UHGV virus genome: UHGV-0014911
Origin: a virus
Direction: 5' to 3' (one strand)
DNA: 40,159 nucleotides
This document shows positions 5,971-27,969 of this stretch, piece after piece; position 1 is the first letter of the stretch, and each line of letters begins with the position of its first letter. The notes under the pieces are model-generated. The model worked only from the letters and a program-made list of their open reading frames with translations, did not search any database and was not told where the DNA came from. The position numbers and the translations under genes are program-made.

Positions 5971-6663
5971 TTAATTGTGTCGCTTAAGGGTTTGTGACTG
6001 ACTGATTAAGACCTTTCCAAAGACCATAAACCGATGTTCGTTTTCGCTGGTAATTCCCCATTCGCGGTAAATCTGATTATCAGAAATTACCAGCAGTTTA
6101 TCAGGTATCATTTGCAGTCGTTTGACGTAAATTTTATCATCAAAACCAAATACATATATACCATCCCCATCAAACTGATTGATACTGATATCAACGAAGA
6201 TGAGATCTCCTGGCTCAATGGTTGGACACATACTGTCCCCACGAACGTTGATAACTTTAATGTGATTTGCTGGTCGTCCACCAAACATCGATACAGCATT
6301 ATCAGTTCTGTATTCAATGGCATGAATCACATCAATGACATCACCGCCCTGGATAAGGCCATTTCCCGCACTGGCACTGACATCCAGCATTTCAATACGG
6401 AATACATCCTTCACCTGCGCAACATCCTCACTAATACTGTTTTTACATACAGTATTACTTTTGAGGTCTGAGGTAAAGAGATCAGCAATATCAACACCTA
6501 AGCTCCTGGCAATATTACTCAGGGCTTGTTCAGTGAATTGTTTCTGCTTACCTGTTTCGAGGCGCGAGATATTCGCCGCATCCACTCCTATTGCTTCAGC
6601 GAGATCGGCGATTTTCATGTTCTTCGCCTGGCGAAGTTGTCTGACTCGATTTCCTATGTTCAT
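5971..6663 (-). CDS. CI-like phage repressor (N-terminal XRE-type HTH plus C-terminal S24/LexA-like autopeptidase domain)
   Basis: 230 aa. HTH near the N-terminus (KIADLAEAIGVDAANISRLETGK), Ala-Gly cleavage site (SASAGNG), and Ser/Lys dyad motifs (VRGDSMCPTIEPGDLIFVD; YVKRL). Confidence 0.9.
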   Translation of the reverse strand: MNIGNRVRQLRQAKNMKIADLAEAIGVDAANISRLETGKQKQFTEQALSNIARSLGVDIADLFTSDLKSNTVCKNSISEDVAQVKDVFRIEMLDVSASAGNGLIQGGDVIDVIHAIEYRTDNAVSMFGGRPANHIKVINVRGDSMCPTIEPGDLIFVDISINQFDGDGIYVFGFDDKIYVKRLQMIPDKLLVISDNQIYREWGITSENEHRFMVFGKVLISQSQTLKRHN

Positions 6664-7021: not shown

Positions 7022-7571
7022 TCATCACTGGAAAGTGGAAAAACAGCCTGAGTGGTACGTGAAAGCTGTCAGAAAAACTATCGCGGCGTTGCCGGGGGGT
7101 TACGCTGAAGCTGCTGAGTGGCTGGATGTAACAGAGAACGCATTATTCAACCGCCTTCGTGCAGATGGCGATCAGATTTTCCCGCTGGGATGGGCAATGA
7201 TTTTACAACGTGCTGGTGGAACTCACTTCATTGCTGACGCTGTGGCGCAGTCTGCAAATGGCGTCTTTGTGTCTCTTCCTGACGTCGAGGATGTGGACAA
7301 CGCCGATATTAACCAGCGTCTGCTGGAAGTCATCGAACAGATCGGGAGTTACTCAAAGCAGATTCGTTCGGCAATCGAAGATGGGGTAGTGGAACCGCAT
7401 GAGAAGACAGCAATTAACGACGAACTGTATCTTTCAATTTCGAAGCTCCAGGAGCATGCAGCACTGGTCTACAAAATCTTCTGCGCTCCAGAAAAGAGTA
7501 ACGCCCGCGAGTGTGCAGCTCCGGGCGTCGTGGCGTCGATTGCTTCTGGTTGTGGAGAAACTAACGCATGA
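7014..7571 (+). CDS. Early-region protein, possibly a CII-like regulator by position (family not confirmed)
   Basis: 185 aa, GTG start with RBS AGGAGG 5 nt upstream, immediately after the cro-like gene. Confidence 0.4.
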   Translation: MGNHHWKVEKQPEWYVKAVRKTIAALPGGYAEAAEWLDVTENALFNRLRADGDQIFPLGWAMILQRAGGTHFIADAVAQSANGVFVSLPDVEDVDNADINQRLLEVIEQIGSYSKQIRSAIEDGVVEPHEKTAINDELYLSISKLQEHAALVYKIFCAPEKSNARECAAPGVVASIASGCGETNA

Positions 7572-7716
7572 ATAGTTTAACGGCAAATAACCGTTTGTCG
7601 CAACAGCTGGTGGTCAGCGTCGCTGAACACCTGTTGTTACGGCATGAATGCAGATTACCAAATCACCTGGCTGTAAGTAACCACAGAGAACTTTACCTGA
7701 TTGTGGGGGGCGAGTT

Positions 7717-7896
7717 GTGCAGGAACTTAACCGCTGGTTTCGTGACGGAAGAGGACTTTATGTTCATGTTATTCGTTGGGAGCCAGAAACACAGCGCGTT
7801 ATCTATCTTCGCAAAGACTACCCGCATGAGTGCTTTAGTCCTTTGTGGAAATTCAGGCGTGATTTTGTTGAGTGTGAAGGACCACCAGCATATTGA
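7717..7896 (+). CDS. Small hypothetical protein (59 aa, GTG start), absent from the ORF track
   Basis: Manual translation gives VQELNRWFRDGRGLYVHVIRWEPETQRVIYLRKDYPHECFSPLWKFRRDFVECEGPPAY, preceded by a G-rich RBS-like run, in a 600-bp stretch otherwise lacking a convincing gene. Confidence 0.3.
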   Translation: MQELNRWFRDGRGLYVHVIRWEPETQRVIYLRKDYPHECFSPLWKFRRDFVECEGPPAY

Positions 7897-8170
7897 TTCT
7901 GCAATTCCGGGACGTTACACTGTCTCTGCACCTTATAAAGCGGGTGCCGGGATTGGCGTCCTGAAATTGTCAACGGCGATGTATGACGCGCCAGCGTCTT
8001 TTTTATCGTCCGCATTTGCTCACATCCAGATTATGGTGGGCTGGGCGGGGGCACCGAAAGGTGCGCCGGTCTCCGTTGACGCCGGTTACGCCAACCCCGT
8101 CCAGTTCACCACCAGTGAAATTGGCGTTTCCGGTGGTGGAAGTTTTTCACTGTCAACGGAGGCTGCCATC

Positions 8171-8728
8171 ATGGCTACGATCCCAGCCCTCACTCAACCT
8201 GAAATCACCATTGACAACGGCCAGGCCGTTACCACTTCTTTGGCTGTTGCCAACTTCTTCTCCAAGCGTCACGACGATGTGCTGAAAAAGATCCGCACTC
8301 TGGATTGTTCCCCTGAGTTTTGTGCCCGCAATTTTGCGGAGACATCGATTTCGGTAAATCAACCGAACGGTGGTACACGCAAGCTCCCTTGCTATCAAAT
8401 CACACGAGACGGTTTTGCATTTCTTGCTATGGGTTTCACGGGTAAACGTGCTGCCCGGTTCAAAGAGGCATACATAAATGCCTTTAACCAGATGGAAAAA
8501 CTGCTTTCAAAGCCATCCACGCTGAGCGATGCCGCAGATAACGCCAGCGTGCTTTACTCCCACCTGTCGGTAATCCACAAGGTCTGGCTGCAGCAGCTTT
8601 ATCCCATGTTGGCAAAAGCCGAATCCCCGCTGGCTGTAAGTCTGTATGACCGCATCAACGACGCGGCGCTACTGGCCAGTCTCATAAATTTGTCGCTGAA
8701 CCCTTCAGAGGTAAGGGGGCGCAAATGA
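8171..8728 (+). CDS. Rha-family phage regulatory protein (antirepressor-like)
   Basis: pRha-type motif (TTSLAVANFFSKRHDDVLKKIRTL ... YQITRDGFAFLAMGFTGKRAARFKEAYINAFNQME). Start placed at the ATG at 8171 with RBS GGAGG 8 nt upstream. The frame stays open upstream to 7568, so the N-terminal boundary is uncertain. Confidence 0.7.
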   Translation: MATIPALTQPEITIDNGQAVTTSLAVANFFSKRHDDVLKKIRTLDCSPEFCARNFAETSISVNQPNGGTRKLPCYQITRDGFAFLAMGFTGKRAARFKEAYINAFNQMEKLLSKPSTLSDAADNASVLYSHLSVIHKVWLQQLYPMLAKAESPLAVSLYDRINDAALLASLINLSLNPSEVRGRK

Positions 8729-12435: not shown

Positions 12436-13431
12436 GTGACCGTGAGAGCACTACTGACCCCTGAAATTGCCCCGCGTATGGGGATCGTATTGTTCAGGCC
12501 AGGTTCAGAGCTGATGCCCCTGTTTATGCAGGGGCGTGTCCTGCTGGAGCCTGAGCCGGAGCGTTATTCATCTTTCGCCAGTGGTGCCGTTCCGGCGGCA
12601 TCACAACCGCTGGCGGATGATCCTGCCGTTCGGGCCGTGTTCCGCAATGAGGCAGTTATTCGTCGTGCTGGTGGCGTGGAATGTCTTGAAAGCTGGTTAC
12701 TTCGTGAAAAGGGCTGTCAGTGGCCTCATTCCGACTGGCACAGCGAGAACATGACCACAATGCGACACGCTCCGGGCGCAATCCGTCTGTGCTGGCACTG
12801 CGATAACCAGCTGCGCGATCAGTTCACGGAACGGCTGGAATCAATGGCAACGGATAACTGTGCCCGCTGGGTGTTGTCTGTTGTGCGTCGGGATCTCGGT
12901 TTTTATGACAGTCACGTTGTGACAATGCCGGAACTGTGCTGGTGGCTGATTCGTAATGACCTGGCGGATGCCTTACCGGAAAGTGCAGCCCGTAAGGCAC
13001 TGAGATTACCAAAGCCTGTTGTGCCGTCTGTCACCCGGGAAAGTGACCTTGTGCCTTCGGTTCCTGCCACCAGCATCATCCAGGATAAAGCGAAAAAGGT
13101 GCTGGCGCTGAAAGTGGATCCGGAGTCGCCGGAGTCTTTTATGTTACGCCCAAAACGTCGCCGCTGGGTTAATGAAAAGTACACGCGCTGGGTTAAGACA
13201 CAGCCGTGTGCATGTTGTGGAAAGCCCGCTGATGATCCCCACCACCTGATAGGTCACGGTCAGGGTGGAATGGGAACAAAAGCGCATGACCTTTTTGTGT
13301 TGCCTTTGTGCAGAAAGCATCACGACGAGCTGCATGCGGATACCGTGGCATTTGAAGAGAAGTATGGCTCCCAGCTGGAGCTGATATTTCGTTTTATCGA
13401 TCGTGCGCTGGCAATTGGCGTATTGGCGTAA
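12436..13431 (+). CDS. DUF968-type phage protein with C-terminal Cys/His (HNH-like) motif
   Basis: 331 aa, GTG start. C-terminus CACCGKPADDPHHLIGHGQGGMGTKAHDLFVLPLCRKHHDELH. Sits in the nin-region position upstream of Q. Confidence 0.6.
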   Translation: MTVRALLTPEIAPRMGIVLFRPGSELMPLFMQGRVLLEPEPERYSSFASGAVPAASQPLADDPAVRAVFRNEAVIRRAGGVECLESWLLREKGCQWPHSDWHSENMTTMRHAPGAIRLCWHCDNQLRDQFTERLESMATDNCARWVLSVVRRDLGFYDSHVVTMPELCWWLIRNDLADALPESAARKALRLPKPVVPSVTRESDLVPSVPATSIIQDKAKKVLALKVDPESPESFMLRPKRRRWVNEKYTRWVKTQPCACCGKPADDPHHLIGHGQGGMGTKAHDLFVLPLCRKHHDELHADTVAFEEKYGSQLELIFRFIDRALAIGVLA

Positions 13432-13444
13432 GTGGAGAACGAGC

Positions 13445-14197
13445 ATGAACCTTGAAGCCTTACCAAAATATTACTCCCCAAAATCTCCAAAATTGAGCGA
13501 TGACGCACCGGCGACAGGCTCTGGTGGTTTAACAATTACGGATGTAATGGCTGCGCAGGGGATGGTGCAGTCGAAAGCACCGCTTGGGTTTGCCTTATTC
13601 CTGGCAAAAGTTGGTGTTCAGGATCCTCAGTTTGCGATTGAAGGTCTGCTCAATTACGCGATGGCACTGGATAACCCGACATTGAACAAATTGAGTGAAG
13701 AAACCCGGCTACAGATCATTCCTTACCTTGTGAATTTTGCCTTTGCTGATTATTCCAGGTCTGCGGCAAGTAAGGCTCGCTGTGAGCATTGTGCTGGTAC
13801 TGGATTTCATGATGTATTGCGCGAGGTGGTGAAACACTCCAGAAGCGGGGAATCTGTTATCAAGGAAGAGTGGGGGAAGGAACTATGTCAGCATTGTCAT
13901 GGTAAGGGAGAAGTCAGCACAGCGTGCAGAGGGTGTAAGGGTAAAGGTATTGTCCTGGATGAAAAAAGAACCCGGCTTCATGGCACGCCTGTTTATAAGA
14001 TTTGTGGGCGTTGCAATGGAAACCGGTTTAGCCGTTTACCAACCACACTGGCGCGGAATCATGTCCAGAAGCTGGTAGCGGACCTGACTGATTATCAGTG
14101 GTACAAAGGATATGCAAATGTCATTGATAAACTGGTGACAAAGTGCTGGCAGGAGGAATCTTACGCTGAAGCACAATTGAGAAAGGTGACGAGATAA
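13445..14197 (+). CDS. Late-gene antitermination protein Q-like (zinc-binding)
   Basis: Located immediately before the late promoter/terminator and lysis genes, with multiple CxxC pairs (CEHCAGTG ... CQHCHGKG ... CRGCKGKG ... CGRCNG). Start placed at the ATG at 13445 with RBS GGAGA. Confidence 0.6.
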   Translation: MNLEALPKYYSPKSPKLSDDAPATGSGGLTITDVMAAQGMVQSKAPLGFALFLAKVGVQDPQFAIEGLLNYAMALDNPTLNKLSEETRLQIIPYLVNFAFADYSRSAASKARCEHCAGTGFHDVLREVVKHSRSGESVIKEEWGKELCQHCHGKGEVSTACRGCKGKGIVLDEKRTRLHGTPVYKICGRCNGNRFSRLPTTLARNHVQKLVADLTDYQWYKGYANVIDKLVTKCWQEESYAEAQLRKVTR

Positions 14198-14228
14198 GTA
14201 ATTTTCGCCGAAGATGGCGACATGATGC

Positions 14229-14257
14229 TTGCATTTTTCAAAAAATATGGTTAGGAT
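14229..14257 (+). promoter_or_regulatory. Candidate late promoter PR' (TTGCAT, 17-bp spacer, TAGGAT)
   Basis: A sigma-70-like -35/-10 pair 30 bp after the Q stop, followed 50 bp later by an intrinsic terminator. This matches the Q-utilisation layout of lambdoid phages. Confidence 0.4.
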
Positions 14258-14304
14258 TTCCCTAACGATGGGCTTTGTGTGTCTACCGTTGATAATCTTC
14301 AAGA

Positions 14305-14327
14305 AACCGCCACCGAGCGGTTTTTTA
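14305..14327 (+). terminator. Rho-independent terminator (tR'-like) downstream of the candidate late promoter
   Basis: Hairpin AACCGC-caccga-GCGGTT followed by a T run. Confidence 0.6.
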
Positions 14328-14485
14328 TTGATGTCAATTGTGTTTTTAAGGCTCTCCTTCCTTAAAGTGTGTTGTACAAAAAACTGGCAGCCAGCTACGC
14401 TCATTTTGAAAAAGTGACACCCTTCAATGTTTCTTTTGAATGGAATTGCTACCCATAAATCTCTATCAAAAACAGGAGAGCATAT

Positions 14486-14728
14486 ATGGTGGAGCGTTGT
14501 TCTGTTTGTGAGCAGTCATTAAGTTATTCACGAGAAGTTGAACAAGATGGCGTTGAATATAAATCTTGCCCAAAATGTTCTGCTGATGCCGGAGTGCACG
14601 TTTTTTATAAAACAATAGACTTTGGTTATAGGGATATGGGAGACGGCAGACATATCGTTCAGTCATGGTGTCCGGCTTGCCGTTCTGGTGAAAAACCTTC
14701 TATACCACCAGCATTTAAATGTTGTTAA
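14486..14728 (+). CDS. Small Cys-rich zinc-ribbon-like protein (80 aa)
   Basis: Three CxxC pairs (CSVCEQ, CPKCSA, CPACRS) and RBS AGGAGA 6 nt upstream; lies between two terminators ahead of the holin. Confidence 0.45.
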   Translation: MVERCSVCEQSLSYSREVEQDGVEYKSCPKCSADAGVHVFYKTIDFGYRDMGDGRHIVQSWCPACRSGEKPSIPPAFKCC

Positions 14729-14746
14729 CTCAATGAATTATAAAAA

Positions 14747-14773
14747 GAGGCTGCCTGTGGGCGGCCTTTTTTG
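14747..14773 (+). terminator. Rho-independent terminator
   Basis: Hairpin AGGCTGCC-tgtg-GGCGGCCT with one mismatch, followed by TTTTTT. Confidence 0.55.
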
Positions 14774-14859
14774 TGCACTACGCATCTTTTGCGACTCAAC
14801 GCTATAACCAGCTTCTTCCCCTTCACTCGTTGCACTTCCGATAACCGGAGGTGGGAATT

Positions 14860-15201
14860 ATGAAAATGCATAACGATCCTCATTCTTGGTCTGACTTACT
14901 TGAATTGTTACAGAGCTGGTGGCGTGGAGACACACCGCTGGGCGCAGTAATTATGTCGATCGTTATGGCTGGCTTGCGCATTGCCTATTTTGGCGGTGGT
15001 GGTGGCTGGAAGCGAAAAACGCTCGAGATTTTGCTCTGTGGCGCTCTGACTCTGACTTTTGCATCCGCTCTTGAGTATGTCGGATGGCCTAAATCTCTTT
15101 CTGTTGCCATTGGTGGCGGCGTTGGGCTGATCGGGGTCGATGCTATTCGTGGGGCTGCAATGCGAGTAATCGGTAACAAATTTGGTAGCTCGAAGGAGTA
15201 A
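14860..15201 (+). CDS. S: Holin (lambda S-like) with dual-start MKM motif
   Basis: Start placed at the ATG at 14860 (RBS GGAGG 9 nt upstream), giving MKMHNDPH... with a second Met two codons later. Hydrophobic segments and a charged C-terminus; directly upstream of the endolysin. Confidence 0.75.
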   Translation: MKMHNDPHSWSDLLELLQSWWRGDTPLGAVIMSIVMAGLRIAYFGGGGGWKRKTLEILLCGALTLTFASALEYVGWPKSLSVAIGGGVGLIGVDAIRGAAMRVIGNKFGSSKE

Positions 15202-15204
15202 TTT

Positions 15205-15681
15205 ATGCAGGAACTAAATCCTCAGCGTAAAGCTTTCCTTGATATGGTGGCCTGGTCAGAAGGAACGGATAACGGACGACAACCGACACGTAACCACGGT
15301 TATGACGTTATTGTCGGTGGCGAACTGTTCACTGATTACTCCGATCACCCTCGCAAACTTGTCACGCTAAACCCCAAACTCAAATCAACAGCCGCCGGAC
15401 GTTACCAGCTTCTTTCACGCTGGTGGGATGCTTACCGTAAACAGCTTGGCCTGAAAGACTTCTCCCCCAAAAGTCAGGACGCTGTTGCACTGCAGCAGAT
15501 TAAAGAGCGCGGCGCTTTACCGATGATTGATCGCGGTGATATCCGTCAGGCTATCGACCGCTGCAGCAATATCTGGGCTTCACTGCCGGGCGCTGGTTAT
15601 GGTCAGTTCGAGCATAAAGTTGACAGACTGATTGCAAAATTCAAAGACGCAGGCGGAACGGTTAGAGAGATTGAGGTATGA
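15205..15681 (+). CDS. R: Endolysin, lambda R-type lytic transglycosylase
   Basis: 158 aa, nearly identical over most of its length to lambda R as I recall it ([20 protein letters not shown] ... [53 protein letters not shown]). Confidence 0.95.
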
Positions 15682-16145
15682 GCAGAGTAACCGCGATTAT
15701 CTCCGCTCTGGTTATCTGCATCATCGTCTGCCTGTCATGGGCAGTTAATCATTACCGTGATAATGCAATCGCCTACAAAGAACAGCGCGATAAAAAAGTC
15801 AGTGAGCTGAAGCAGGCGACTGCCACCATTACTGACATGCAGCAGCGTCAGCGTACTGCTGATGCACTCGATGCTAAATACACGAAGGAGTTAGCTGATG
15901 CGAAAGCTGAAAATGATGCTCTTCGGCGCAAGCTTGATGATGGTGGCAGGGTGCTCGTCAAAGGAAAATCCCCTGTGCCATCCTCAGCCGAAACCTCCAG
16001 CGCCTCCGGCATGGGCAATGATGCCACCGTCGAACTCTCTCCAAGTGCTGGACGAAACGTTCTCGGTATCCGGGACGGAATTATCCGCGACCAAACAGCA
16101 CTGAGAGCGCTTCAGGAATACATTAGGACGCAATGCCTTCGATGA
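15678..16145 (+). CDS. Rz: i-spanin Rz
   Basis: N-terminal half matches lambda Rz ([31 protein letters not shown] ... [16 protein letters not shown]); the C-terminal half diverges. Confidence 0.9.
15898..16104 (+). CDS. Rz1: o-spanin Rz1, embedded in Rz in the +1 frame
   Basis: 68 aa, lipobox (MMVAGC), proline-rich ([11 protein letters not shown]), wholly inside the Rz gene as in lambda. Confidence 0.85.
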
Positions 16146-18263: not shown

Positions 18264-18295
18264 AGCCACAGGCATGTGCCGGTGGCTTTTTTTTA
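18264..18295 (+). terminator. Rho-independent terminator of the moron
   Basis: Hairpin AGCCAC ... GTGGCT with an inner GGCA/TGCC stem, followed by a run of nine T. Confidence 0.7.
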
Positions 18296-18306
18296 TTGGA
18301 GCAAAT

Positions 18307-18657
18307 ATGCCACCCCGGACACCTAAAGCTTGCCGTGTTCGCGGCTGCCGCTCTACAACAACAGACCCATCAGGTTACTGCGAGTCCCACAAAGGCGAAG
18401 GCTGGAAATCCTACAAATCGGGACAATCCCGGCATCAGCGCGGCTACGGTTCGAAGTGGGATGTTATCCGTGAACGAGTGCTGAAGCGTGACAAAGGCCT
18501 GTGTCAGTTGTGTTTGCGTGCTGGTGTGGTGCGCGAGGCGAAAACCGTTGACCACATCATCCCTAAAGCGCATGGCGGCACTGATGCCGAAAGTAATCTG
18601 CAGAGCCTGTGCTGGCCGTGTCATAAGGCGAAGACGGCCCGTGAATGGTTGAAGTAA
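18307..18657 (+). CDS. HNH endonuclease (terminase-associated)
   Basis: Cys/His HNH motif (CQLCLRAG ... VDHIIPKAHGG ... NLQSLCWPCHKAK). Start placed at the ATG at 18307 with RBS GGAG; directly upstream of the terminase small subunit. Confidence 0.85.
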   Translation: MPPRTPKACRVRGCRSTTTDPSGYCESHKGEGWKSYKSGQSRHQRGYGSKWDVIRERVLKRDKGLCQLCLRAGVVREAKTVDHIIPKAHGGTDAESNLQSLCWPCHKAKTAREWLK

Positions 18658-18782: not shown

Positions 18783-19277
18783 ATGGCTGGAACGGCGGGG
18801 CGTTCCGGGCGTCGCCCCAAGCCAACGGCGCGCAAGGCGCTGGCCGGAAACCCCGGCAAGCGAGCCCTGAACAAAGATGAACCTGTTTTTACGCCCATCA
18901 AAGGCGTTGAGCCACCGGAGTGGTTCGCAGAAGAAAATCTCCCTCTCGCCACGATCATGTGGCAACTGACAACCAAAGAACTCTGCGGTCAGGGCCTGCT
19001 GTGCGTGACTGACCTCGCGGTGCTTGAGCGGTGGTGCGTAGCCTATGAGTTCTGGCGACGTGCCGTGAAAAATATTGCCAGCCAGGGCAACACCATCACC
19101 GGTGCAATGGGCGGTATGGTCAAAAATCCGGAGCTGACCGCCAAGAAAGAACAGGAGTCCGAGATGAGCAGCACGGGGGCAATGCTCGGACTCGACCCCA
19201 GCAGCCGCCAGCGTCTGATTGGCCTGGCGGGGCAGAAGAAAGCCACTAACCCGTTTCTGAAAATTATCGAATCATGA
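18783..19277 (+). CDS. Terminase small subunit (P27-like family)
   Basis: Start placed at the ATG at 18783 with RBS GGAG. Basic N-terminus ([25 protein letters not shown]) and position upstream of the large subunit. Confidence 0.8.
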
Positions 19278-21007
19278 GCCGGAAATCTTACCCCAACGTA
19301 AATGCTGCCAATCAGTATGCCCGGGATGTCGTGCGCGGAAAGATTGTGGCCTGCCAGTTTGTGATTCAGGCCTGCCAGCGCCATCTTGATGACCTGATGG
19401 CGGAAAAAAGTAAGTCGTTTCGTTACCGCTTCGACAAGGACCTGGCTGAACGGGCCGCCAAATTTATTCAGCTGTTGCCGCACACCAAGGGTGAGTGGGC
19501 ATTTAAGAGGATGCCCATCACGCTGGAGCCGTGGCAGCTCTTTGTGATCTGCTGCGCGTTTGGCTGGGTCAATAAAGGCTCCCGGCTGCGTCGCTTCCGT
19601 GAGGTGTATACCGAAATCCCCCGTAAGAACGGCAAATCGGCAATCTCTGCCGGTGTCGCCCTGTATTGTTTTGCCTGTGATAACGAGTTCGGCGCGGAAG
19701 TGTATTCCGGTGCCACGACGGAGAAACAGGCATGGGAAGTCTTTCGTCCGGCAAGACTGATGTGTAAACGCACACCCATGCTGACGGAAGCGTTCGGGAT
19801 TGAGGTTAACGCCTCAAACATGAACCGTCCGGAGGATGGTGCGCGTTTTGAACCGCTGATCGGTAACCCCGGTGATGGTTCATCACCCCACTGTGCGGTG
19901 GTGGATGAATATCACGAGCACGCCACAGATGCGCTTTACACCACGATGCTTACCGGGATGGGGGCGCGACGTCAGCCACTGATGTGGGCTATCACTACCG
20001 CCGGGTACAACATTGAGGGGCCGTGCTACGACAAACGGCGGGAAGTCATCGAGATGCTCAACGGCTCGGTGCCTAACGATGAACTGTTCGGGATCATCTA
20101 TACCGTTGATGAAGGTGACGACTGGACCGACCCGCAGGTGCTGGAAAAAGCCAATCCAAATATTGGCGTGTCGGTTTATCGCGAATTTTTGTTAAGTCAG
20201 CAGCAGCGTGCGAAAAATAACGCCCGTCTGGCAAACGTCTTTAAAACAAAACACCTCAATATCTGGGTGTCGGCGCGTTCGGCGTATTTCAATCTGGTGA
20301 GCTGGCAGAGCTGCGAGGATAAATCATTGACCATTGAGCAGTTCGAGGGGCAACCGTGCATTCTGGCCTTTGACCTGGCGCGTAAGCTGGATATGAACAG
20401 TATGGCGCGACTTTATACCCGCGAGATTGACGGTAAAACGCATTACTACAGTGTGGCTCCGCGCTTCTGGGTACCGTATGACACGGTGTACAGCGTCGAG
20501 AAAAATGAAGATCGCCGGACAGCCGAACGCTTTCAGAAATGGGTGGAAATGGGCGTTCTGACCGTTACCGCTGGTGCGGAGGTGGATTATCGCTACATCC
20601 TCGAGGAGGCCAAAGCGGCGAACAAAATCAGTCCGGTCAGTGAGTCACCCATCGACCCCTTCGGGGCGACCGGGTTGTCACATGACCTTGCTGATGAAGA
20701 CCTGAACCCCATCACTATCATTCAGAACTACACCAACATGTCCGACCCGATGAAAGAGCTGGAAGCGGCAATTGAATCGGGGCGCTTTCATCATGATGGC
20801 AATCCCATCATGACCTGGTGTATCGGCAACGTGGTCGGCAAAACCATTCCGGGTAACGATGATGTGGTGAAGCCCGTCAAAGAGCAGGCGGAAAACAAAA
20901 TTGACGGTGCAGTTGCGCTGATTATGGCGGTTGGCAGAGCCATGCTGTACGAGAAAGAAGACACGCTGTCTGACCACATTGAGTCCTATGGGATCCGCTC
21001 GCTTTAA
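19274..21007 (+). CDS. Terminase large subunit (ATPase/nuclease)
   Basis: 577 aa with a P-loop-like motif ([13 protein letters not shown]) and acidic nuclease-domain residues; ATGA overlap with the small subunit. Confidence 0.9.
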
Positions 21008-21018
21008 CTGAGGTAATT

Positions 21019-21201
21019 ATGATCATGCTGATTCTCGCGCCTCTGGTGGGCGTGCTGGGGGCGCTTTTGCTGGCGTATGGTGCCTGGCTGATTTATCCCC
21101 CGGCGGGGTTTGTTGTTGCCGGGGCGTTGTGCCTGTTCTGGTCGTGGCTGGTGGCGCGATATCTCGACCGTACACAGCTGTCTGTTGGTGGAGGTAAATA
21201 G
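21019..21201 (+). CDS. Small predicted membrane protein (60 aa, two hydrophobic helices)
   Basis: [26 protein letters not shown] ... [18 protein letters not shown]; RBS GAGG; between terminase and portal. Confidence 0.45.
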
Positions 21202-22442
21202 TGTTCTTTTCGGGATTATTTCAACGAAAAAGTGACGCACCGGTGACCACGCCAGCAGAGCTGGCGGATGCCATCGGGTTGTCCTACGACACCTATACCG
21301 GAAAGCAGATCAGCAGTCAGCGGGCCATGCGACTGACGGCGGTTTTTTCCTGCGTCAGAGTGCTGGCAGAGTCGGTCGGGATGTTGCCCTGCAATCTGTA
21401 TCACCTGAACGGCAGCCTGAAGCAGAGAGCCACCGGCGAACGTCTGCATAAACTGATCTCCACGCATCCCAATGGCTATATGACGCCGCAGGAGTTCTGG
21501 GAGCTGGTGGTCACCTGTCTGTGCCTGAGGGGAAATTTTTACGCCTACAAAGTGAAAGCATTTGGCGAAGTGGCTGAACTGCTGCCCGTCGACCCCGGTT
21601 GTGTGGTACCGAAGCTTAACAGTAGCTGGGAACCGGTTTACCAGGTCACATTCCCGGACGGCTCCACGGATGTACTGAGCCAGGAAGATATCTGGCATGT
21701 GCGCACGCTGACGCTGGACGGACTGGTGGGGCTGAATCCCATCGCCTATGCCCGCGAGGCAATATCGCTGGCGGCAGCGACCGAAGAGCACGGGGCCAGA
21801 CTGTTCAGCAATGGCGCGGTGACGTCGGGTGTGTTGCGTACAGAGCAGACGCTGTCAGATCAGGCTTACGAGCGCCTGAAGAAAGATTTTGAGGAGCGTC
21901 ACACCGGGCTTGGTAATGCTCACCGCCCGATGATCCTTGAGATGGGGCTGGACTGGAAGTCGATGGCGCTGAACGCCGAGGACAGCCAGTTCCTGGAAAC
22001 CCGCAAGTTTCAGCTTGAAGAAATCTGTCGTCTGTTCCGGGTGCCGTTGCACATGGTGCAGAACACCGATCGCGCCACCTTCAACAATATTGAAGAGCTG
22101 GGGCTGGGATTTATCAACTATTCACTGGTGCCGTATCTGACCCGCATCGAGCAGCGGATCAACACCGGACTGGTTCGAAAAAGTAAGCAGGGCGTTTATT
22201 ACGCCAAATTTAACGCCGGGGCGTTACTGCGCGGGGATATGAAGTCCCGTTTTGAAGCCTACGCCACCGGGATTAACTGGGGAATTTACTCTCCCAATGA
22301 CTGCCGCGACCTGGAAGATATGAATCCGCGTCCCGGTGGGGATGTCTATCTCACACCGATGAACATGACCACGAAACCCTCCGATGGCAGTAAAGCCGGT
22401 AAGCAGAAGGATAACGCCAATGCAGACGAAACAACGTCTTGA
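21201..22442 (+). CDS. Portal protein (HK97 family)
   Basis: 413 aa, GTG start with RBS GGAGG, immediately after the terminase and before the prohead protease. Confidence 0.85.
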   Translation: MFFSGLFQRKSDAPVTTPAELADAIGLSYDTYTGKQISSQRAMRLTAVFSCVRVLAESVGMLPCNLYHLNGSLKQRATGERLHKLISTHPNGYMTPQEFWELVVTCLCLRGNFYAYKVKAFGEVAELLPVDPGCVVPKLNSSWEPVYQVTFPDGSTDVLSQEDIWHVRTLTLDGLVGLNPIAYAREAISLAAATEEHGARLFSNGAVTSGVLRTEQTLSDQAYERLKKDFEERHTGLGNAHRPMILEMGLDWKSMALNAEDSQFLETRKFQLEEICRLFRVPLHMVQNTDRATFNNIEELGLGFINYSLVPYLTRIEQRINTGLVRKSKQGVYYAKFNAGALLRGDMKSRFEAYATGINWGIYSPNDCRDLEDMNPRPGGDVYLTPMNMTTKPSDGSKAGKQKDNANADETTS

Positions 22443-23070
22443 TGTACCGCTGAGTCTGAAATCTGTCAGTGACTCCGGTGAGTTTGAAGGGTATGGCTCC
22501 GTCTTTGGTGTAAAGGACAGCCACGATGATGTGGTGATGTCCGGGGCATTTGCTGCTTCCCTGCGGGCGTGGAGTGACAGAAAAGCGTTACCAGCGCTGC
22601 TCTGGCAGCACCGCATGGATGAGCCCATCGGTGTTTATACCGAAATGAAGGAAGACGATGTCGGGCTTTACGTCAGGGGGCGGTTGCTCATTGATGATGA
22701 TCCCCTGGCAAAACGCGCACATGCACACATGAAGGCCGGTTCGTTAACCGGCCTTTCTATTGGGTACGTCCTGAAGGACTGGGAATACGACCGGACGAAA
22801 GAAGCCTTTCTGCTGAAAGAAATCGACCTCTGGGAAGTCAGTCTGGTGACGTTTCCGTCTAACGACGAGGCGCGGATCAGCGACGTCAAGAACGCGCTGG
22901 CCCGCGGGGAAATCCCCGAACAGAAAAAAATCGAAAGAGTCCTGCGTGATGTCGGACTCTCCCGTACCCAGGCCAAAGCATTCATGGCCGGGGGCTATGG
23001 CGCACTGTCCCTGCGCGACGCTGAGGATGTGGGCTCTGCACTGAATGCACTGAAAAATCTGAACTTCTAA
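22420..23070 (+). CDS. Prohead maturation protease (HK97 family)
   Basis: Motifs GYGSVFGVKDSHDDVVMSGAF. Start placed at the ATG at 22420 (RBS GAAGG); the track start at 22384 is an alternative. Confidence 0.8.
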   Translation: MQTKQRLDVPLSLKSVSDSGEFEGYGSVFGVKDSHDDVVMSGAFAASLRAWSDRKALPALLWQHRMDEPIGVYTEMKEDDVGLYVRGRLLIDDDPLAKRAHAHMKAGSLTGLSIGYVLKDWEYDRTKEAFLLKEIDLWEVSLVTFPSNDEARISDVKNALARGEIPEQKKIERVLRDVGLSRTQAKAFMAGGYGALSLRDAEDVGSALNALKNLNF

Positions 23071-23084
23071 TCAGGAGAAATACG

Positions 23085-24290
23085 ATGGCGGTAGATATTA
23101 AAGATGTCGAACAGGTCGCGCAGGAGCTGCAGCAGAAGTTTGACGACTTCAAAGCAAAGAACGACAAGCGCGTGGATGCGATTGAGCAGGAAAAAGGCAA
23201 ACTTGCCGGGCAGGTGGAAACCCTGAACGGGAAACTCAGCGAGCTGGAAAACCTCAAAAGCGATCTTGAAAAAGAGCTTCTTGAGCTGAAACGTCCGGCA
23301 GGTGGTGCGCAAAATAAACTGGCCACCGAGCATAAAGAAGCGTTTGTGGGCTTCCTGCGTAAAGGCCGTGAAGATGGTCTGCGCGATCTGGAGCGCAAGG
23401 CATTACAGGTGGGCACCGATGAAGACGGCGGCTATGCCGTGCCGGAAGCACTGGATCGCAACATTCTTACCCTGCTGAAAGATGAAGTGGTGATGCGCCA
23501 GGAAGCCACGGTGATCACCGTTGGCGGTTCCGACTACAAAAAACTGGTGAATCTGGGCGGCACGGCTTCCGGATGGGTTGGCGAGACTGACACGCGCTCC
23601 CAGACTGCCACCTCAAAACTGGGACTGATTGAACCTTTCATGGGGGAAATCTACGGTAACCCGCAGGCCACCCAGAAAATGCTGGATGATGCCTTTTTCA
23701 ACGTGGAGGCCTGGATCAACAGCGAGCTGGCAACCGAATTTGCCGAACAGGAAGAAATTGCCTTTACCACCGGCGATGGTACCAAGAAGCCGAAAGGGTT
23801 CCTGGCGTATGAATCCACGGATGAAACCGATAAGGTCCGGGCGTTCGGCAAACTTCAGCATATTGTATCCGGCGACGCGACTGCGGTGACCGCAGACGCC
23901 ATTATCAAACTGATTTACACGCTGCGAAAGGCACACCGCACTGGCGCGAAGTTCATGATGAATAACAACAGCCTGTTTGCCATCCGTCTGCTGAAAGACA
24001 CCGAGGGTAACTATCTGTGGCGTCCGGGGCTGGAACTGGGGCAGCCGTCCTCTCTGGCGGGTTACGGTATCGCTGAAAACGAACAGATGCCGGATATCGC
24101 CGCTGATGCGAAAGCCCTTGCATTTGGTAACTTCAAACGGGGTTACACCATCGTTGACCGTATCGGCACCCGCATTCTGCGTGACCCGTACACCAATAAA
24201 CCGTTTGTCGGTTTTTATACCACCAAGCGCACCGGCGGGATGCTGGTCGATTCGCAGGCCATCAAACTGCTGAAGATTGCAGCGGCGTAA
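23085..24290 (+). CDS. Major capsid protein (HK97 fold) with N-terminal coiled-coil delta domain
   Basis: 401 aa, RBS AGGAGA. Coiled-coil N-terminal 70 residues followed by the capsid domain; gene order protease then capsid. Confidence 0.9.
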   Translation: MAVDIKDVEQVAQELQQKFDDFKAKNDKRVDAIEQEKGKLAGQVETLNGKLSELENLKSDLEKELLELKRPAGGAQNKLATEHKEAFVGFLRKGREDGLRDLERKALQVGTDEDGGYAVPEALDRNILTLLKDEVVMRQEATVITVGGSDYKKLVNLGGTASGWVGETDTRSQTATSKLGLIEPFMGEIYGNPQATQKMLDDAFFNVEAWINSELATEFAEQEEIAFTTGDGTKKPKGFLAYESTDETDKVRAFGKLQHIVSGDATAVTADAIIKLIYTLRKAHRTGAKFMMNNNSLFAIRLLKDTEGNYLWRPGLELGQPSSLAGYGIAENEQMPDIAADAKALAFGNFKRGYTIVDRIGTRILRDPYTNKPFVGFYTTKRTGGMLVDSQAIKLLKIAAA

Positions 24291-24296
24291 TCACTC

Positions 24297-24318
24297 AGGG
24301 GCGCGGAACCGCGCCCCT
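24297..24318. repeat. GC-rich perfect inverted repeat (hairpin) immediately after the capsid gene
   Basis: AGGGGCGCGG-aa-CCGCGCCCCT, 7 bp after the capsid stop; no following T run. Confidence 0.6.
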
Positions 24319-24338
24319 GTTCTGACGGGTGAAGAATC

Positions 24339-24539
24339 ATGATCCTGAAACAAGATCTGAAATGGTCACCGGACGGTATGCGTGTTGAGGTCATTCGGGC
24401 CGGTGAGTATGACGACGGGGCGCTTCCTGCCCGGGTGCAGGAGATTGCACTTCAGGCCGGGTTAGCAGAGCGCGGAACCAGTGCAAAAAGCAGTAAAGCG
24501 GCAAAAGAGAAAAAAGCCACGACCAGTAAAGAGGGCTGA
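24339..24539 (+). CDS. Hypothetical small head-module protein (66 aa)
   Basis: Lys/Ala-rich C-terminus; between the capsid and head-tail connector genes. Confidence 0.4.
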   Translation: MILKQDLKWSPDGMRVEVIRAGEYDDGALPARVQEIALQAGLAERGTSAKSSKAAKEKKATTSKEG

Positions 24540-24541
24540 GT

Positions 24542-24865
24542 ATGCTTCTGACAATGGAAGAGATTAAAGCCCAACTCCGGCTGGATGAGGATTTCGATGC
24601 TGATGACCGCCATCTGCAACTGCTGGCCTGTGCGGCGCAAAAGCGGACGGAAACGTATCTGAACCGGAAGCTCTATGCACCGGATGAAACCATTCCGGAC
24701 AGCGATCCGGACGGGCTGCACCTGTCGGATGATATTCGTCTGGGGATGCTGATGCTTATCAGCCATTTTTACGAAAACCGCTCTTCGGTTACGGAAGTGG
24801 AGAAACTCGACATGCCGCAGAGTTTTGGCTGGCTTGTCGGCCCGTACAGGTACTTTCCGCAATGA
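24542..24865 (+). CDS. Head-tail connector protein (gp6-like)
   Basis: 107 aa; position and typical N-terminus (EEIKAQLRLDEDFDADD). Confidence 0.7.
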   Translation: MLLTMEEIKAQLRLDEDFDADDRHLQLLACAAQKRTETYLNRKLYAPDETIPDSDPDGLHLSDDIRLGMLMLISHFYENRSSVTEVEKLDMPQSFGWLVGPYRYFPQ

Positions 24866-25272
24866 AAATTCGTCAGGCGCAGACCAGCGCAACCTACATT
24901 CTGCCGGACCCCGGCGAACTGAATAAACGCGTCCTGATCCGCCAGCGGGTGGATATGCCTGTGGATAACTTTGGCGTGGAGCCTCAATACCCGGTTGCGT
25001 TCCGGGCATGGGCGAAGGTTGTCCAGACCAGTGCCACCACCTGGCAGGAAACCGCGCAGACCGGGGACGCCATCACCCATTACATCACCATTCGTTACCG
25101 CCGGGGGATCACTGCTGATTATGAGGTGGTCTGTGATGACAGTGTGTACCGGGTGAAACGTCAGCGTGATCTGAACGGGGCGCGGCGCTTTCTGCTGCTG
25201 GAGTGTACGGAGCTGGGCGAATGTAGGCAGAGTCACGGAGGCAGCAATGGCGACTCCCTTTTTTCACGTTGA
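24862..25272 (+). CDS. Head closure / head-tail adaptor protein
   Basis: 136 aa, position in the head completion block; overlaps the next gene by 26 nt. Confidence 0.55.
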   Translation: MKIRQAQTSATYILPDPGELNKRVLIRQRVDMPVDNFGVEPQYPVAFRAWAKVVQTSATTWQETAQTGDAITHYITIRYRRGITADYEVVCDDSVYRVKRQRDLNGARRFLLLECTELGECRQSHGGSNGDSLFSR

Positions 25273-25753
25273 TGTTCAGCAGCCCGCCGAGATGCGCTTT
25301 AACCGCGCCCGTGTCCGGCGGGCGTTTGTCACGATTGGGCAGCGTCATATGCGTGATGCCCGTCGGCTGGTGATGCGCCGTGCGCGGTCGGCACCGGGTG
25401 AAAACCCCGGTTATCAGACCGGACGCCTGGCTCGTTCGATTGGTTATATGGTGCCGAGAGCCAGTAAAAAGCGAGCCGGTTTTATGACACGCATTGCCCC
25501 TAACCAGCGCAACGGGAAGGGGAACCGGATGATCTCTGGTGACTTCTATCCGGCGTTTCTGTTTTTTGGTGTCCGGGGAGGAGCAAAACGTCGTCGCAGT
25601 CATCATCGTGGTGCATCCGGTGGCAGCGGCTGGCGACTGGCTCCACGTAATAACTTCATGGTGGAAACTCTTGAAAAGAACCGCAGCTGGACACGCTATT
25701 TTCTGGCGCGGGAATTGCGTAAATCACTGAAGCCGGAGCGACGACACAGATGA
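25247..25753 (+). CDS. HK97 gp10-family head-tail joining protein
   Basis: 168 aa, RBS GGAGG, motif QTGRLARSIGY, basic C-terminal region. Confidence 0.6.
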   Translation: MATPFFHVDVQQPAEMRFNRARVRRAFVTIGQRHMRDARRLVMRRARSAPGENPGYQTGRLARSIGYMVPRASKKRAGFMTRIAPNQRNGKGNRMISGDFYPAFLFFGVRGGAKRRRSHHRGASGGSGWRLAPRNNFMVETLEKNRSWTRYFLARELRKSLKPERRHR

Positions 25754-26317: not shown

Positions 26318-26488
26318 CATGTTTGTGAAACCTGTTAAAGGGCGGTCAGTTCCTGACCCTGCCCGCGGCGACCTTTTGCCCGCCGAAGGGCGAAATGTTG
26401 ACGAGAACAACTACTGGCTGCGCCGTGAAGCAGCGGGTGATATCCGGCGCGTGAATAAAAAGGTGAACACCGATGACGATAAGCTTTA
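26318..26488 (+). CDS. Small conserved protein preceding the sheath gene (DUF2635-like), absent from the ORF track
   Basis: Manual translation gives MFVKPVKGRSVPDPARGDLLPAEGRNVDENNYWLRREAAGDIRRVNKKVNTDDDKL (56 aa) with RBS GAGGA 5 nt upstream. Confidence 0.55.
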
Positions 26489-27969
26489 ACACCATTCCGT
26501 CGAATACGCTGGTTCCGTTGTTTTATGCGGAAATGGATAACCAGGCGGCGAATACTGCACAGGACAGCGGGGCATCGTTGCTGATTGGTCATGCCAGTAA
26601 CGGTGCAGAGATTGTTGCCAACAGTCTGGTACTGATGCCGTCGGCAGACTATGCACGCCAGATTTGTGGTGCGGGAAGTCAGCTGGCGCGTATGGTCGAG
26701 GCTTATCGCCAGACCGACCCGTTTGGTGAGCTGTATGTGATTGCCGTTCCTGAATCCACGGGCGCGGCGGCAACGGTTACGCTGACGGTGACCGGGGAGG
26801 CAACCGAAACCGGCACGGTGAATGTGTATGTGGGACGTACCCGCGTGCAGGCTCCGGTGACCAACGGCGATAACGTCGCGACGATTGCCAGCAGTATTAA
26901 AGATGCCATCAATGCCGTTCCGACCCTGCCGTTTACTGCCTCATCTTCGGCAGGCGTGGTCACACTGACCGCGCGTCATAAGGGGCTTTGCGGGAATGAA
27001 ATTCCTGTCAGCCTCAATTACTACGGCTTTGGTGGGGGCGAAGTGCTGCCAGCGGGCGTACAGATTGCCGTGGCGACGGGGACCGCCGGAACGGGCGCTC
27101 CGGTTCTCACCGGCGCGGTGGCTGCAATGGCGGATGAGCCGTTTGATTATATCGGCCTGCCGTTCAACGACACGGCCTCCGTTAACACGCTGGTGACCGA
27201 GATGAACGATACCAGCGGTCGCTGGAGCTATGCGCGTCAGCTGTATGGTCATGTGTATACGGCAAAGATCGGCACGCTGTCAGAACTGGTGACCGCAGGT
27301 GACCAGTTTAACCAGCAGCACATTACCCTGGCGGGGTACGAAAAAGAGACCCAGACGCCTGCCGACGAGCTGGCGGCAAGCCGTACCGCCCGCGCAGCGG
27401 TGTTTATCCGCAACGATCCGGCTCGTCCCACGCAGACCGGTGAGCTGGTGGGTATGCTGCCTGCGCCGAAGGGGAAACGGTTCACGATGACCGAGCAGCA
27501 GACCCTGCTGTCTCATGGCGTGGCAACGGCGTATGTCGAAAGCGGGGTGCTGCGCATTCAGCGTGATGTCACCACGTACAGGAAAAACGCTTACGGTGTT
27601 GCGGATAACAGCTACCTCGACAGCGAGACGCTGCATACCAGCGCGTATGTGCTGCGCAAACTGAAATCCGTCATTACCAGTAAGTACGGGCGTCACAAGC
27701 TTGCCAGCGACGGTACCCGCTTTGGTCCCGGTCAGGCGATTGTCACCCCGGCGGTGATCAAAGGGGAACTGCTGGCAACCTACCGTCAGCTCGAGCGTGC
27801 GGGGATCGTGGAAAACTACGAACTGTTCAAGCAGTACCTGGTTGTGGAGCGTGATGCCAGCGATCCGAACCGCCTGAACACGCTGTTCCCGCCTGACTAT
27901 GTTAACCAGTTGCGTGTCTTTGCCGTGGTTAACCAGTTCCGTCTTCAGTATTCAGAGGAGTCTGCATAA
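26473..27969 (+). CDS. Contractile tail sheath protein (Mu gpL-like)
   Basis: 498 aa, directly upstream of the tube, chaperone and tape measure genes. Confidence 0.85.
   Translation: MTISFNTIPSNTLVPLFYAEMDNQAANTAQDSGASLLIGHASNGAEIVANSLVLMPSADYARQICGAGSQLARMVEAYRQTDPFGELYVIAVPESTGAAATVTLTVTGEATETGTVNVYVGRTRVQAPVTNGDNVATIASSIKDAINAVPTLPFTASSSAGVVTLTARHKGLCGNEIPVSLNYYGFGGGEVLPAGVQIAVATGTAGTGAPVLTGAVAAMADEPFDYIGLPFNDTASVNTLVTEMNDTSGRWSYARQLYGHVYTAKIGTLSELVTAGDQFNQQHITLAGYEKETQTPADELAASRTARAAVFIRNDPARPTQTGELVGMLPAPKGKRFTMTEQQTLLSHGVATAYVESGVLRIQRDVTTYRKNAYGVADNSYLDSETLHTSAYVLRKLKSVITSKYGRHKLASDGTRFGPGQAIVTPAVIKGELLATYRQLERAGIVENYELFKQYLVVERDASDPNRLNTLFPPDYVNQLRVFAVVNQFRLQYSEESA

Follow-up and report, generated by a model that had tools for sequence, protein, structure and literature searches.

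Intrinsic terminators require a U-tract, and terminator-like hairpins inside Q-antiterminated lambda-type operons get read through; lambda itself is not known to have a post-E hairpin equivalent to the one described here. An intercistronic hairpin can also serve as a 3′ stabiliser, as the REP element in malE-malF does. In phage T7, T7 RNA polymerase is measurably stopped by the terminator T-phi, which has a U-run and is partly read through. [quoted passage not shown] Protective stem-loops have also been described in the ‘programmed mRNA decay’ of operons (Dar and Sorek 2018, as cited in PMC6938266). For phages related to the one studied here, the terminators predicted in the SfIV genome paper are displayed in a figure only, and the SfV GenBank record annotates the hairpin at the analogous site as a ‘putative rho-independent terminator’.

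Here we analysed the virus genome UHGV-0014911 over its whole length of 40,159 nt (hereafter, the window) and describe a GC-rich hairpin located directly after its major capsid gene. Like T-phi, this hairpin is a stem-loop that directly follows, on a polycistronic late transcript, the structural gene whose product is needed most, but the window differs in that the polymerase would be that of the host under Q, and termination is undetectable in the expression data of the related phage ST64B. With stabiliser hairpins it shares a very stable, U-tract-less GC stem at the 3′ end of the most-needed cistron, for which a block to PNPase or RNase II is plausible; it differs from the REP family in being single copy and lacking the REP consensus, and the expected upstream excess is absent from the ST64B transcript levels. 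The lambda late operon (PR′-tR′) is alike in its Q gene (PF03589), terminators, and lysis and structural genes, a likeness that describes the context and not the hairpin. The terminators of Serratia, Citrobacter, Enterobacter, Erwinia, Yersinia, Morganella, and Gilliamella prophages match the window in position (2–19 nt past the stop codon and before the next Shine-Dalgarno (SD) sequence), GC-rich stem, and sense orientation, whereas their stems have 5–8 bp and are followed by 5–8 T in 8 nt, compared with 10 bp and 3 T in 8 in the window. SfV and phiP27 differ in having a tandem, non-homologous arrangement, in which a small terminator is followed by a second, U-less hairpin.

Genomic context of the hairpin

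The window was assigned to a temperate E. coli myovirus prophage of the SfI/SfII/SfIV/ST64B type. Phages of this type were 96–98% identical to a 2.2-kb query taken from around the hairpin, and the query matched 1307 of the 5426 complete E. coli genomes. The layout is lambda-type, with the Q gene, terminators, and then the lysis and structural genes, all on one strand. The gene for the Q-type late antiterminator (13403–14197, +; phrog_127; PF03589 Antiterm, 179 bits) lies upstream of the lysis and structural operon and is followed, on the same strand, by the genes for holin, endolysin, and Rz (14851–16145), an HNH endonuclease (18274–18657), TerL (19274–21007), portal (21201–22442), prohead protease (22384–23070), and the HK97-type major capsid protein of 401 aa (23085–24290; phrog_10 major head protein, E = 8e-102; PF05065 Phage_capsid, 265 bits), which ends with the stop codon TAA (24288–24290). 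The next gene is a 66-aa ORF of unknown function (24339–24539, +; phrog_1020) that is syntenic in other genera and had no match in a Pfam search; its SD sequence is GGTGA (24328–24332, +). The head-tail adaptor Ad1, head closure Hc1, and Neck1 genes (24542–25753, +) and the tail sheath gene (26473–27969, +) lie further downstream.

Two terminator-shaped hairpins were found between Q and holin: a strong canonical intrinsic terminator, AAAAGAGGCTGCC TGTG GGCGGCCTTTTTT (14743–14772, +), and a weaker one (approximately 14304–14327, +). Both lie in the path of late transcription, so the late RNA polymerase must override them. Judging from lambda biology, a Q-modified polymerase would also be expected to ignore a weak terminator 10 kb downstream. 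Between them lies an ORF of 80 aa that has four CxxC motifs (14486–14728), and the region 14198–14850 (+) resembles a PR′/tR′ late-leader region carrying an inserted moron. In lambdoid prophages, sRNAs of the Pas type have been reported near Q/holin regions; as relatives of the post-capsid hairpin they were rejected, being unrelated and located there and not at the 3′ end of the capsid gene. Elsewhere in the window, isrK (62 bits) and C4 antisense RNA (81 bits) gave Rfam matches above the gathering score, at 7928–8004 and 8029–8116 (+), within or just ahead of an Ash/Rha-type ORF (7568–8728). The site adjoins a CI-like repressor gene (5971–6663) and corresponds to a P1/P7-style antisense immunity module.

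Sequence and predicted fold

A gap of 48 nt separates the capsid stop codon from the ATG of the 66-aa ORF and reads TCACT CAGGGGCGCGG AA CCGCGCCCCTG TTCTGACG GGTGA AGAATC. The initial annotation had correctly placed a perfect palindrome with 10-nt arms at 24297–24318, starting at the seventh base past the stop codon. One further pair, C24296-G24319, extends it to the full palindrome CAGGGGCGCGG AA CCGCGCCCCTG (24296–24319, +), a perfect inverted repeat with 11-nt arms (24296–24306 and 24309–24319) that starts at the sixth base. We also agree with the annotation that no T run lies behind the palindrome, since the tail TTCTGACG (24320–24327, +) has 3 T in 8. A 2-nt loop is impossible, and the RNA form is therefore a 10-bp stem with the loop GAAC (24306–24309, +), which is GAAG, GAAT, or the flipped GTTC in relatives. 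Nine of the ten stem pairs are G-C pairs, and the fold has a predicted energy of approximately −22 kcal/mol (−22.3 for the best 30-nt window), making it the most stable 30-nt fold among approximately 40,000 windows of the + strand (z = −5.9). The 8-bp core of the stem consists of a 5′ arm, GGGGCGCG (24298–24305, +), that is kept in essentially all alleles of the clade, where the loop-proximal base alone varies, and a 3′ arm, CGCGCCCC (24310–24317, +), with C-runs of 4, 5, or 6 and G-runs of 4, 5, or 6 across alleles.

Perfect hairpin palindromes with arms of at least 11 nt appeared in approximately 8% of dinucleotide shuffles of the window (p ~0.08), so that the perfection of the palindrome, taken alone, is at best modestly unusual. 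The hairpin was not reported by a consensus terminator scan of the window, and nothing was found at its position when the whole window was searched against Rfam 15 at the gathering threshold; a local search with a permissive E-value gave a miRNA model as the best match (E = 7.6), which is noise. In the minimum free energy (MFE) fold, the 5 nt that separate the stop codon from the hairpin (TCACT, 24291–24295, +) pair with GGTGA, but this outer helix adds only approximately 3 kcal/mol. RNase III acts on approximately 20 bp or more of double-stranded RNA; the stem here has 10 bp, and at most 15 bp when the weak outer helix is counted across an 8-nt internal loop, which is too short for such a processing site.

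Alleles within the clade

The clade set comprised 86 close relatives with 98–100% capsid identity, of which 81 came from IMG/VR and the others were ST64B, phi467, two Shigella copies, and one Edwardsiella locus. The hairpin was a variable site among them, and the perfect allele of the window was the second commonest. The commonest allele carries an extra C (CCCCC; …CCGCGCCCCCTG), which either bulges a C or costs the two outer pairs, and its tail is CUGUUCUG or CTGTTCTG; given this C bulge, there is no visible selection on the outer two stem pairs. The part retained across the alleles is the 8-bp core GGGGCGCN/NGCGCCCC, and 96.7% of the stem cells were paired within the clade, with a core pair broken in a few singleton alleles (L024, L030, L052, and L057). 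Counted by distinct alleles, the loop-closing pair was G-C in 13, A-U in two, G.U in one, U.G in one (ST64B), and unpaired in five. The lengths of the G-run and C-run were either matched (4/4, 5/5, and 6/6) or mismatched (4/5 and 5/4). The outer helix TCACT/GGTGA was invariant, remaining fully pairable in all 22 clade alleles.

The centre of the palindrome was flipped from AA to TT, changing the loop from GAAC to GUUC, in two independent backgrounds, namely L122 (Edwardsiella hoshinae, 2704–2756) and L148 (E. coli 0H25, approximately 56–125). Because both loops occur, loop identity does not appear to be read. The alleles L122, L148, L145, and L146 show mutations typical of palindromes, including matched arm expansions (5/5 and 6/6), the 6/6 form being a 12-bp perfect stem. 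Covariation within the clade was weak, comprising a double-sided change at one stem pair in three sequences, and shuffle controls gave 19–26 of 500. The clade sequences are too similar to inform on covariation, and the argument is therefore carried by the comparison across genera.

A 55-nt element containing the hairpin was present in 1040 of the 5426 complete E. coli genomes, with a median of one place per genome, and it lay between a ‘phage major capsid protein’ and a ‘hypothetical protein’ in all 25 of the E. coli matches listed.

Equivalent hairpins in other genera

A scan with the capsid protein, retaining one genome per species, provided 60 loci with 40–99% identity. Nearly all Enterobacterales relatives shared one layout, in which the capsid stop codon is followed by a short spacer (2–12 nt, and 19 nt in Yersinia), a GC-rich hairpin, a short tail, an SD sequence, and the ATG of the homologous small ORF. 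In 25 of the 53 non-redundant loci outside the clade, compared with approximately 3 expected by chance, the 50 nt after the stop codon folded more stably than at least 95% of the random windows taken from the same locus (Wilcoxon p = 5e-6). The stems themselves differed between genera: GGGGC-UUCG-GCCCC in Klebsiella, Citrobacter, Erwinia, Serratia, and Lonsdalea; CCGGGAGC-GCAG-GCUCCCGG in Mangrovibacter; GGCGGCA-GAAA-UGCCGCC in Morganella; GGGCGGC…GCCGCCU in Xenorhabdus; GCCCUUUAU-UAA-AUAAAGGGC in Gilliamella; and GUGCCCGC-N6-GCGGGCAC in phiP27 and SfV, where the capsid 3′ end is non-homologous.

Across 30 lineages with the hairpin, the 8 nt after it contained at least 5 T in 12, 4 T in five, and 3 T or fewer in 13, including the window. 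The T-runs of the relatives were located on the sense side only, which indicates that selection acts on the sense RNA and not on a symmetric site in the DNA. Strong U-less hairpins recurred independently in Mangrovibacter, S. marcescens, and Scandinavium. The U-poor hairpins had a mean stability of −15.2 kcal/mol versus −11.9 kcal/mol for the U-rich ones, a difference that was not significant (p = 0.11).

In Serratia sp. L9 and S. fonticola, the region reads TAATCG-CAGGGGC-TTCG-GCCCCTG-TTTTT…GGAG, and its counterpart in the window is TAATCACT-CAGGGGC[GCG-GAAC-CGC]GCCCCTG-TTCTG…GGTGA, with the same flanks in Serratia (TAATC..CAGGGGC..GCCCCTGTT). Compared at this level, the Serratia element CAGGGGC-UUCG-GCCCCUG-UUUUU looks like a direct homologue of the window hairpin, which in turn looks like a Serratia-type terminator whose stem has gained three pairs and whose U-tract has decayed. 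The tail of the window can accordingly be read as an eroded U-tract, since Serratia and other genera have TTTTT... at the homologous position.

The region behind the capsid gene was organised differently, in a non-homologous module, in phiP27 (L002, 2716–2765), SfV (L003, 2240–2298), and Proteus (L108 and L110). This module consists of a small hairpin with T7–8 that overlaps the stop codon or lies after it, followed by a second, U-less 8-bp GC hairpin abutting the SD sequence. Pairing between the T-run and the SD sequence AGGAGGA, which is possible in phiP27, extends the second hairpin to 15 bp.

Perfect dyad symmetry could also point to an element acting as DNA, such as a palindromic site for a dimeric protein, a cruciform, a REP-like repeat, or a recombination hotspot, and module boundaries lie nearby (phiP27 homology ends at 24279 and phi467-type homology at 24415). 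We consider such an element very improbable, since the sequence is replaced across genera while pairing and position are kept, and the T-runs are confined to the sense side. A palindromic operator was rejected on the same grounds, its half-site being replaced between genera while the pairing is kept and the T-runs being strand-polar. A dispersed REP/BIME palindrome was likewise rejected, as the hairpin is single copy within the window, occupies a median of one place per E. coli genome, has no REP consensus, and stood in capsid context in all of the matches listed. Arms of 11 nt are short for cruciform extrusion.

The alleles also bear on whether the hairpin is a decaying relic, that is, a former terminator now neutral in a Q-antiterminated operon, whose GC-rich palindrome corrects itself through templated repair or slippage. 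The eroded U-tract, the imperfect commonest allele, and the singletons with broken pairs are all compatible with decay; slippage of the G/C-runs and the AA-to-TT centre flip are typical of palindrome-templated mutation, and no RNA step was seen in ST64B. However, the relatives that keep their T-run have shorter and less stable stems than the window, which is the opposite of decay, and the 8-bp core is kept amid variable intergenic sequence in approximately 1,000 E. coli genomes and in ST64B of Salmonella. The independent recurrence of strong U-less hairpins also speaks against neutrality, and a relic thus appears unlikely.

Transcript levels across the hairpin in ST64B

Per-gene TPM values for the ST64B prophage of S. 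Typhimurium D23580 were taken from Table S5 of Owen et al. 2020 (PMC7067206), using peroxide and NO shock, the two conditions in which the lytic genes are expressed. The values (peroxide/NO shock) were 35/35 for TerL, 33/36 for portal, 37/44 for protease, 57/74 for capsid, 76/93 for sb7 (the 66-aa ORF), 67/92 for sb8, 41/61 for sb9, and 43/50 and 35/42 for the next two genes (PMC7067206). At this gene-level resolution there was no fall from capsid to sb7 and sb8; capsid was not above these next two genes and exceeded the upstream portal and protease only by approximately 1.5-fold. These data are of low depth (approximately 50 TPM) and population-averaged, with noisy values for short genes, and the ST64B allele differs from that of the window in having a shorter, 8-bp stem with a U.G closing pair. 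The comparison of abundance upstream and downstream of the hairpin, which the initial annotation had proposed as a check, therefore yields no step in this relative at the level of whole genes, an outcome that the annotation had listed among those that would refute its proposal.

The same table shows an approximately 2-fold TPM drop after the coat gene of BTP1, a P22-like prophage, in several conditions, for example from 41 to 21 TPM between STMMW_03811 and STMMW_03821 in early stationary phase (ESP) (PMC7067206). Because this step is visible, the dataset is able to reveal such steps. No sigma-70-like + strand promoter that could mask termination was predicted between 20506 and 34000 in the window. 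Overall, any effect of the hairpin on steady-state RNA appears to be small, lying below the approximately 1.5-fold gene-to-gene scatter of the ST64B dataset, the only one available.

These values bear most directly on an efficient partial terminator, or attenuator, at which many late transcripts would stop, so that capsid mRNA would exceed the mRNAs for head completion and tail and set protein stoichiometry. Terminator ancestry, the canonical T-runs of many relatives, the SfV annotation at the analogous site, the single T7 terminator directly after the capsid gene (PMC6938266), and the BTP1 step are all in line with attenuation. Nevertheless, we regard it as rather unlikely here: the tail reads UUCUGACG here and CUGUUCUG in the commonest allele, the hairpin escaped the terminator scan, the operon is Q-antiterminated, and the ST64B levels do not fall across the hairpin although no predicted downstream promoter could mask a drop.

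Position relative to the ribosome-binding site

Flat RNA levels in ST64B leave translation as a possible level at which stoichiometry is set. A translational device could insulate the heavily translated capsid ORF from the next cistron by blocking re-initiation, or hide the SD sequence through the TCACT/GGTGA helix until a terminating ribosome melts it (coupling), and RNA levels might stay unchanged in either case. The hairpin begins a few nucleotides past the stop codon and ends a few nucleotides before the SD sequence in almost all relatives, the MFE fold pairs TCACT with GGTGA, this pairing is possible in every clade allele, and the U-run of phiP27 pairs with its SD sequence around the second hairpin. 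On the other hand, the pairing probability of the SD zone was 0.59, which ranked 9 of 28 late genes and is not distinctive, and the outer helix showed neither compensatory change nor a consistent equivalent in other genera, in addition to its small energy. SD sequestration by TCACT/GGTGA was consequently rejected as a distinctive feature, and a translational device as a whole seems an unlikely explanation. That the post-capsid hairpin acts at the level of the ribosome and not of RNA abundance, either by clean release and a block to re-initiation or by making translation of the 66-aa ORF conditional on that of the capsid gene, is in our view improbable, although a ribosome terminating at the capsid stop codon would reach the hairpin; if true, such action would explain a dispensable U-tract alongside a stem that is kept and even lengthened.

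A second palindrome and other stable folds in the window

The only other perfect hairpin palindrome in the window with arms of at least 10 nt and a short loop lies within the protease gene (22732–22755, +). It reads AAGGCCGGTT-CGTT-AACCGGCCTT, with perfect 10-nt arms, and encodes KAGSLTGL. The arms were nucleotide-identical in approximately 25 lineages from many Enterobacterales genera, with the loop alone varying, while the flanking codons varied synonymously; synonymous diversity here is the joint lowest of the gene. In Morganella, two changes compensate each other (GGT to GGA, and ACC-Thr to TCC-Ser) and keep 10 of 10 pairs, and in distant relatives the KAGSLTGL peptide was encoded by other codons and the pairing was lost. 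If the stem is taken as 8 bp, the tail is U-rich (TTTCTATT). From this pattern of codon use, the palindrome appears to be a nucleic-acid element with a function of its own inside a coding sequence, possibly as an RNA structure within the gene, and it deserves its own study more than the post-capsid hairpin does. It is a speculative extension that the two hairpins bracket a processed, stabilised capsid mRNA.

The gap between TerL and portal (21020–21201, +) contains two 30-nt folds, at 21036–21065 and 21097–21126, that rank in the top ten of the window by stability. Both lie inside an unlisted, strongly hydrophobic ORF of approximately 60 aa that matches ST64B STMMW_20022 in position. These folds were rejected as intergenic punctuation because they are coding.

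Discussion

The initial annotation proposed that a hairpin of this kind stabilises mRNA or partially terminates transcription and thereby sets stoichiometry. A hairpin of the terminator or stabiliser kind is upheld by the comparison across genera, in which the position is kept although the stems differ and 12 of 30 lineages carry a T-run, and by the SfV annotation; the role in stoichiometry finds no such backing, given the Q context, the eroded U-tract, and the flat ST64B values. In the manner of intrinsic terminators, the window has a GC-rich stem-loop (approximately 5–12 bp with a short loop is typical) and is positionally equivalent to bona fide terminator-shaped elements, such as those of the 12 lineages and the Serratia homologue, but its 3 T in 8 nt fall short of a U-tract of at least 4–5 U within 8 nt. 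In the manner of 3′ stabilisers, it is a stable, U-tract-less stem-loop at the 3′ end of the more needed cistron, but the upstream excess is not seen in the ST64B TPM values. We therefore class it as a degenerate-tailed relative of terminators and as a confirmed member of neither class.

That the element is a selected sense-RNA hairpin of terminator ancestry is held with high confidence, and any specific downstream effect with low confidence. Taken together, we favour, with moderate confidence, a terminator-lineage hairpin that is mostly read through and has a residual 3′-end role of small effect. According to this scheme, the hairpin would be the E. coli/Shigella/Salmonella allele of an intercistronic stem-loop found after the capsid gene throughout the HK97-type head-module lineage. 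It very probably descends from an intrinsic terminator, whose stem would have lengthened in this clade (8–12 bp, compared with 5–8 bp in most relatives) while the U-tract decayed to UUCUGACG. The hairpin would form in the sense late transcript, 5 nt past the capsid stop codon, and with a Q-modified RNA polymerase and a poor U-tract, nearly all polymerases would be expected to read through it. Its residual activity may consist in terminating a small fraction of transcripts or, more likely, in blocking 3′-to-5′ exonucleases, so that transcripts ending or cut downstream would be trimmed back to a capsid-terminal 3′ end.

The importance of the hairpin beyond annotation is small, and it is best seen as ordinary late-operon punctuation. 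If it does tune the 3′ ends of capsid mRNA or downstream translation, it would offer a natural system for differential expression in Q-antiterminated late operons. Since the U-tract is facultative at the post-capsid site, terminator predictors would miss approximately half of such elements. Overall, a widespread prophage head module that is present in approximately one-fifth of complete E. coli genomes carries, directly behind its major capsid gene, a stem-loop that is conserved and under selection.
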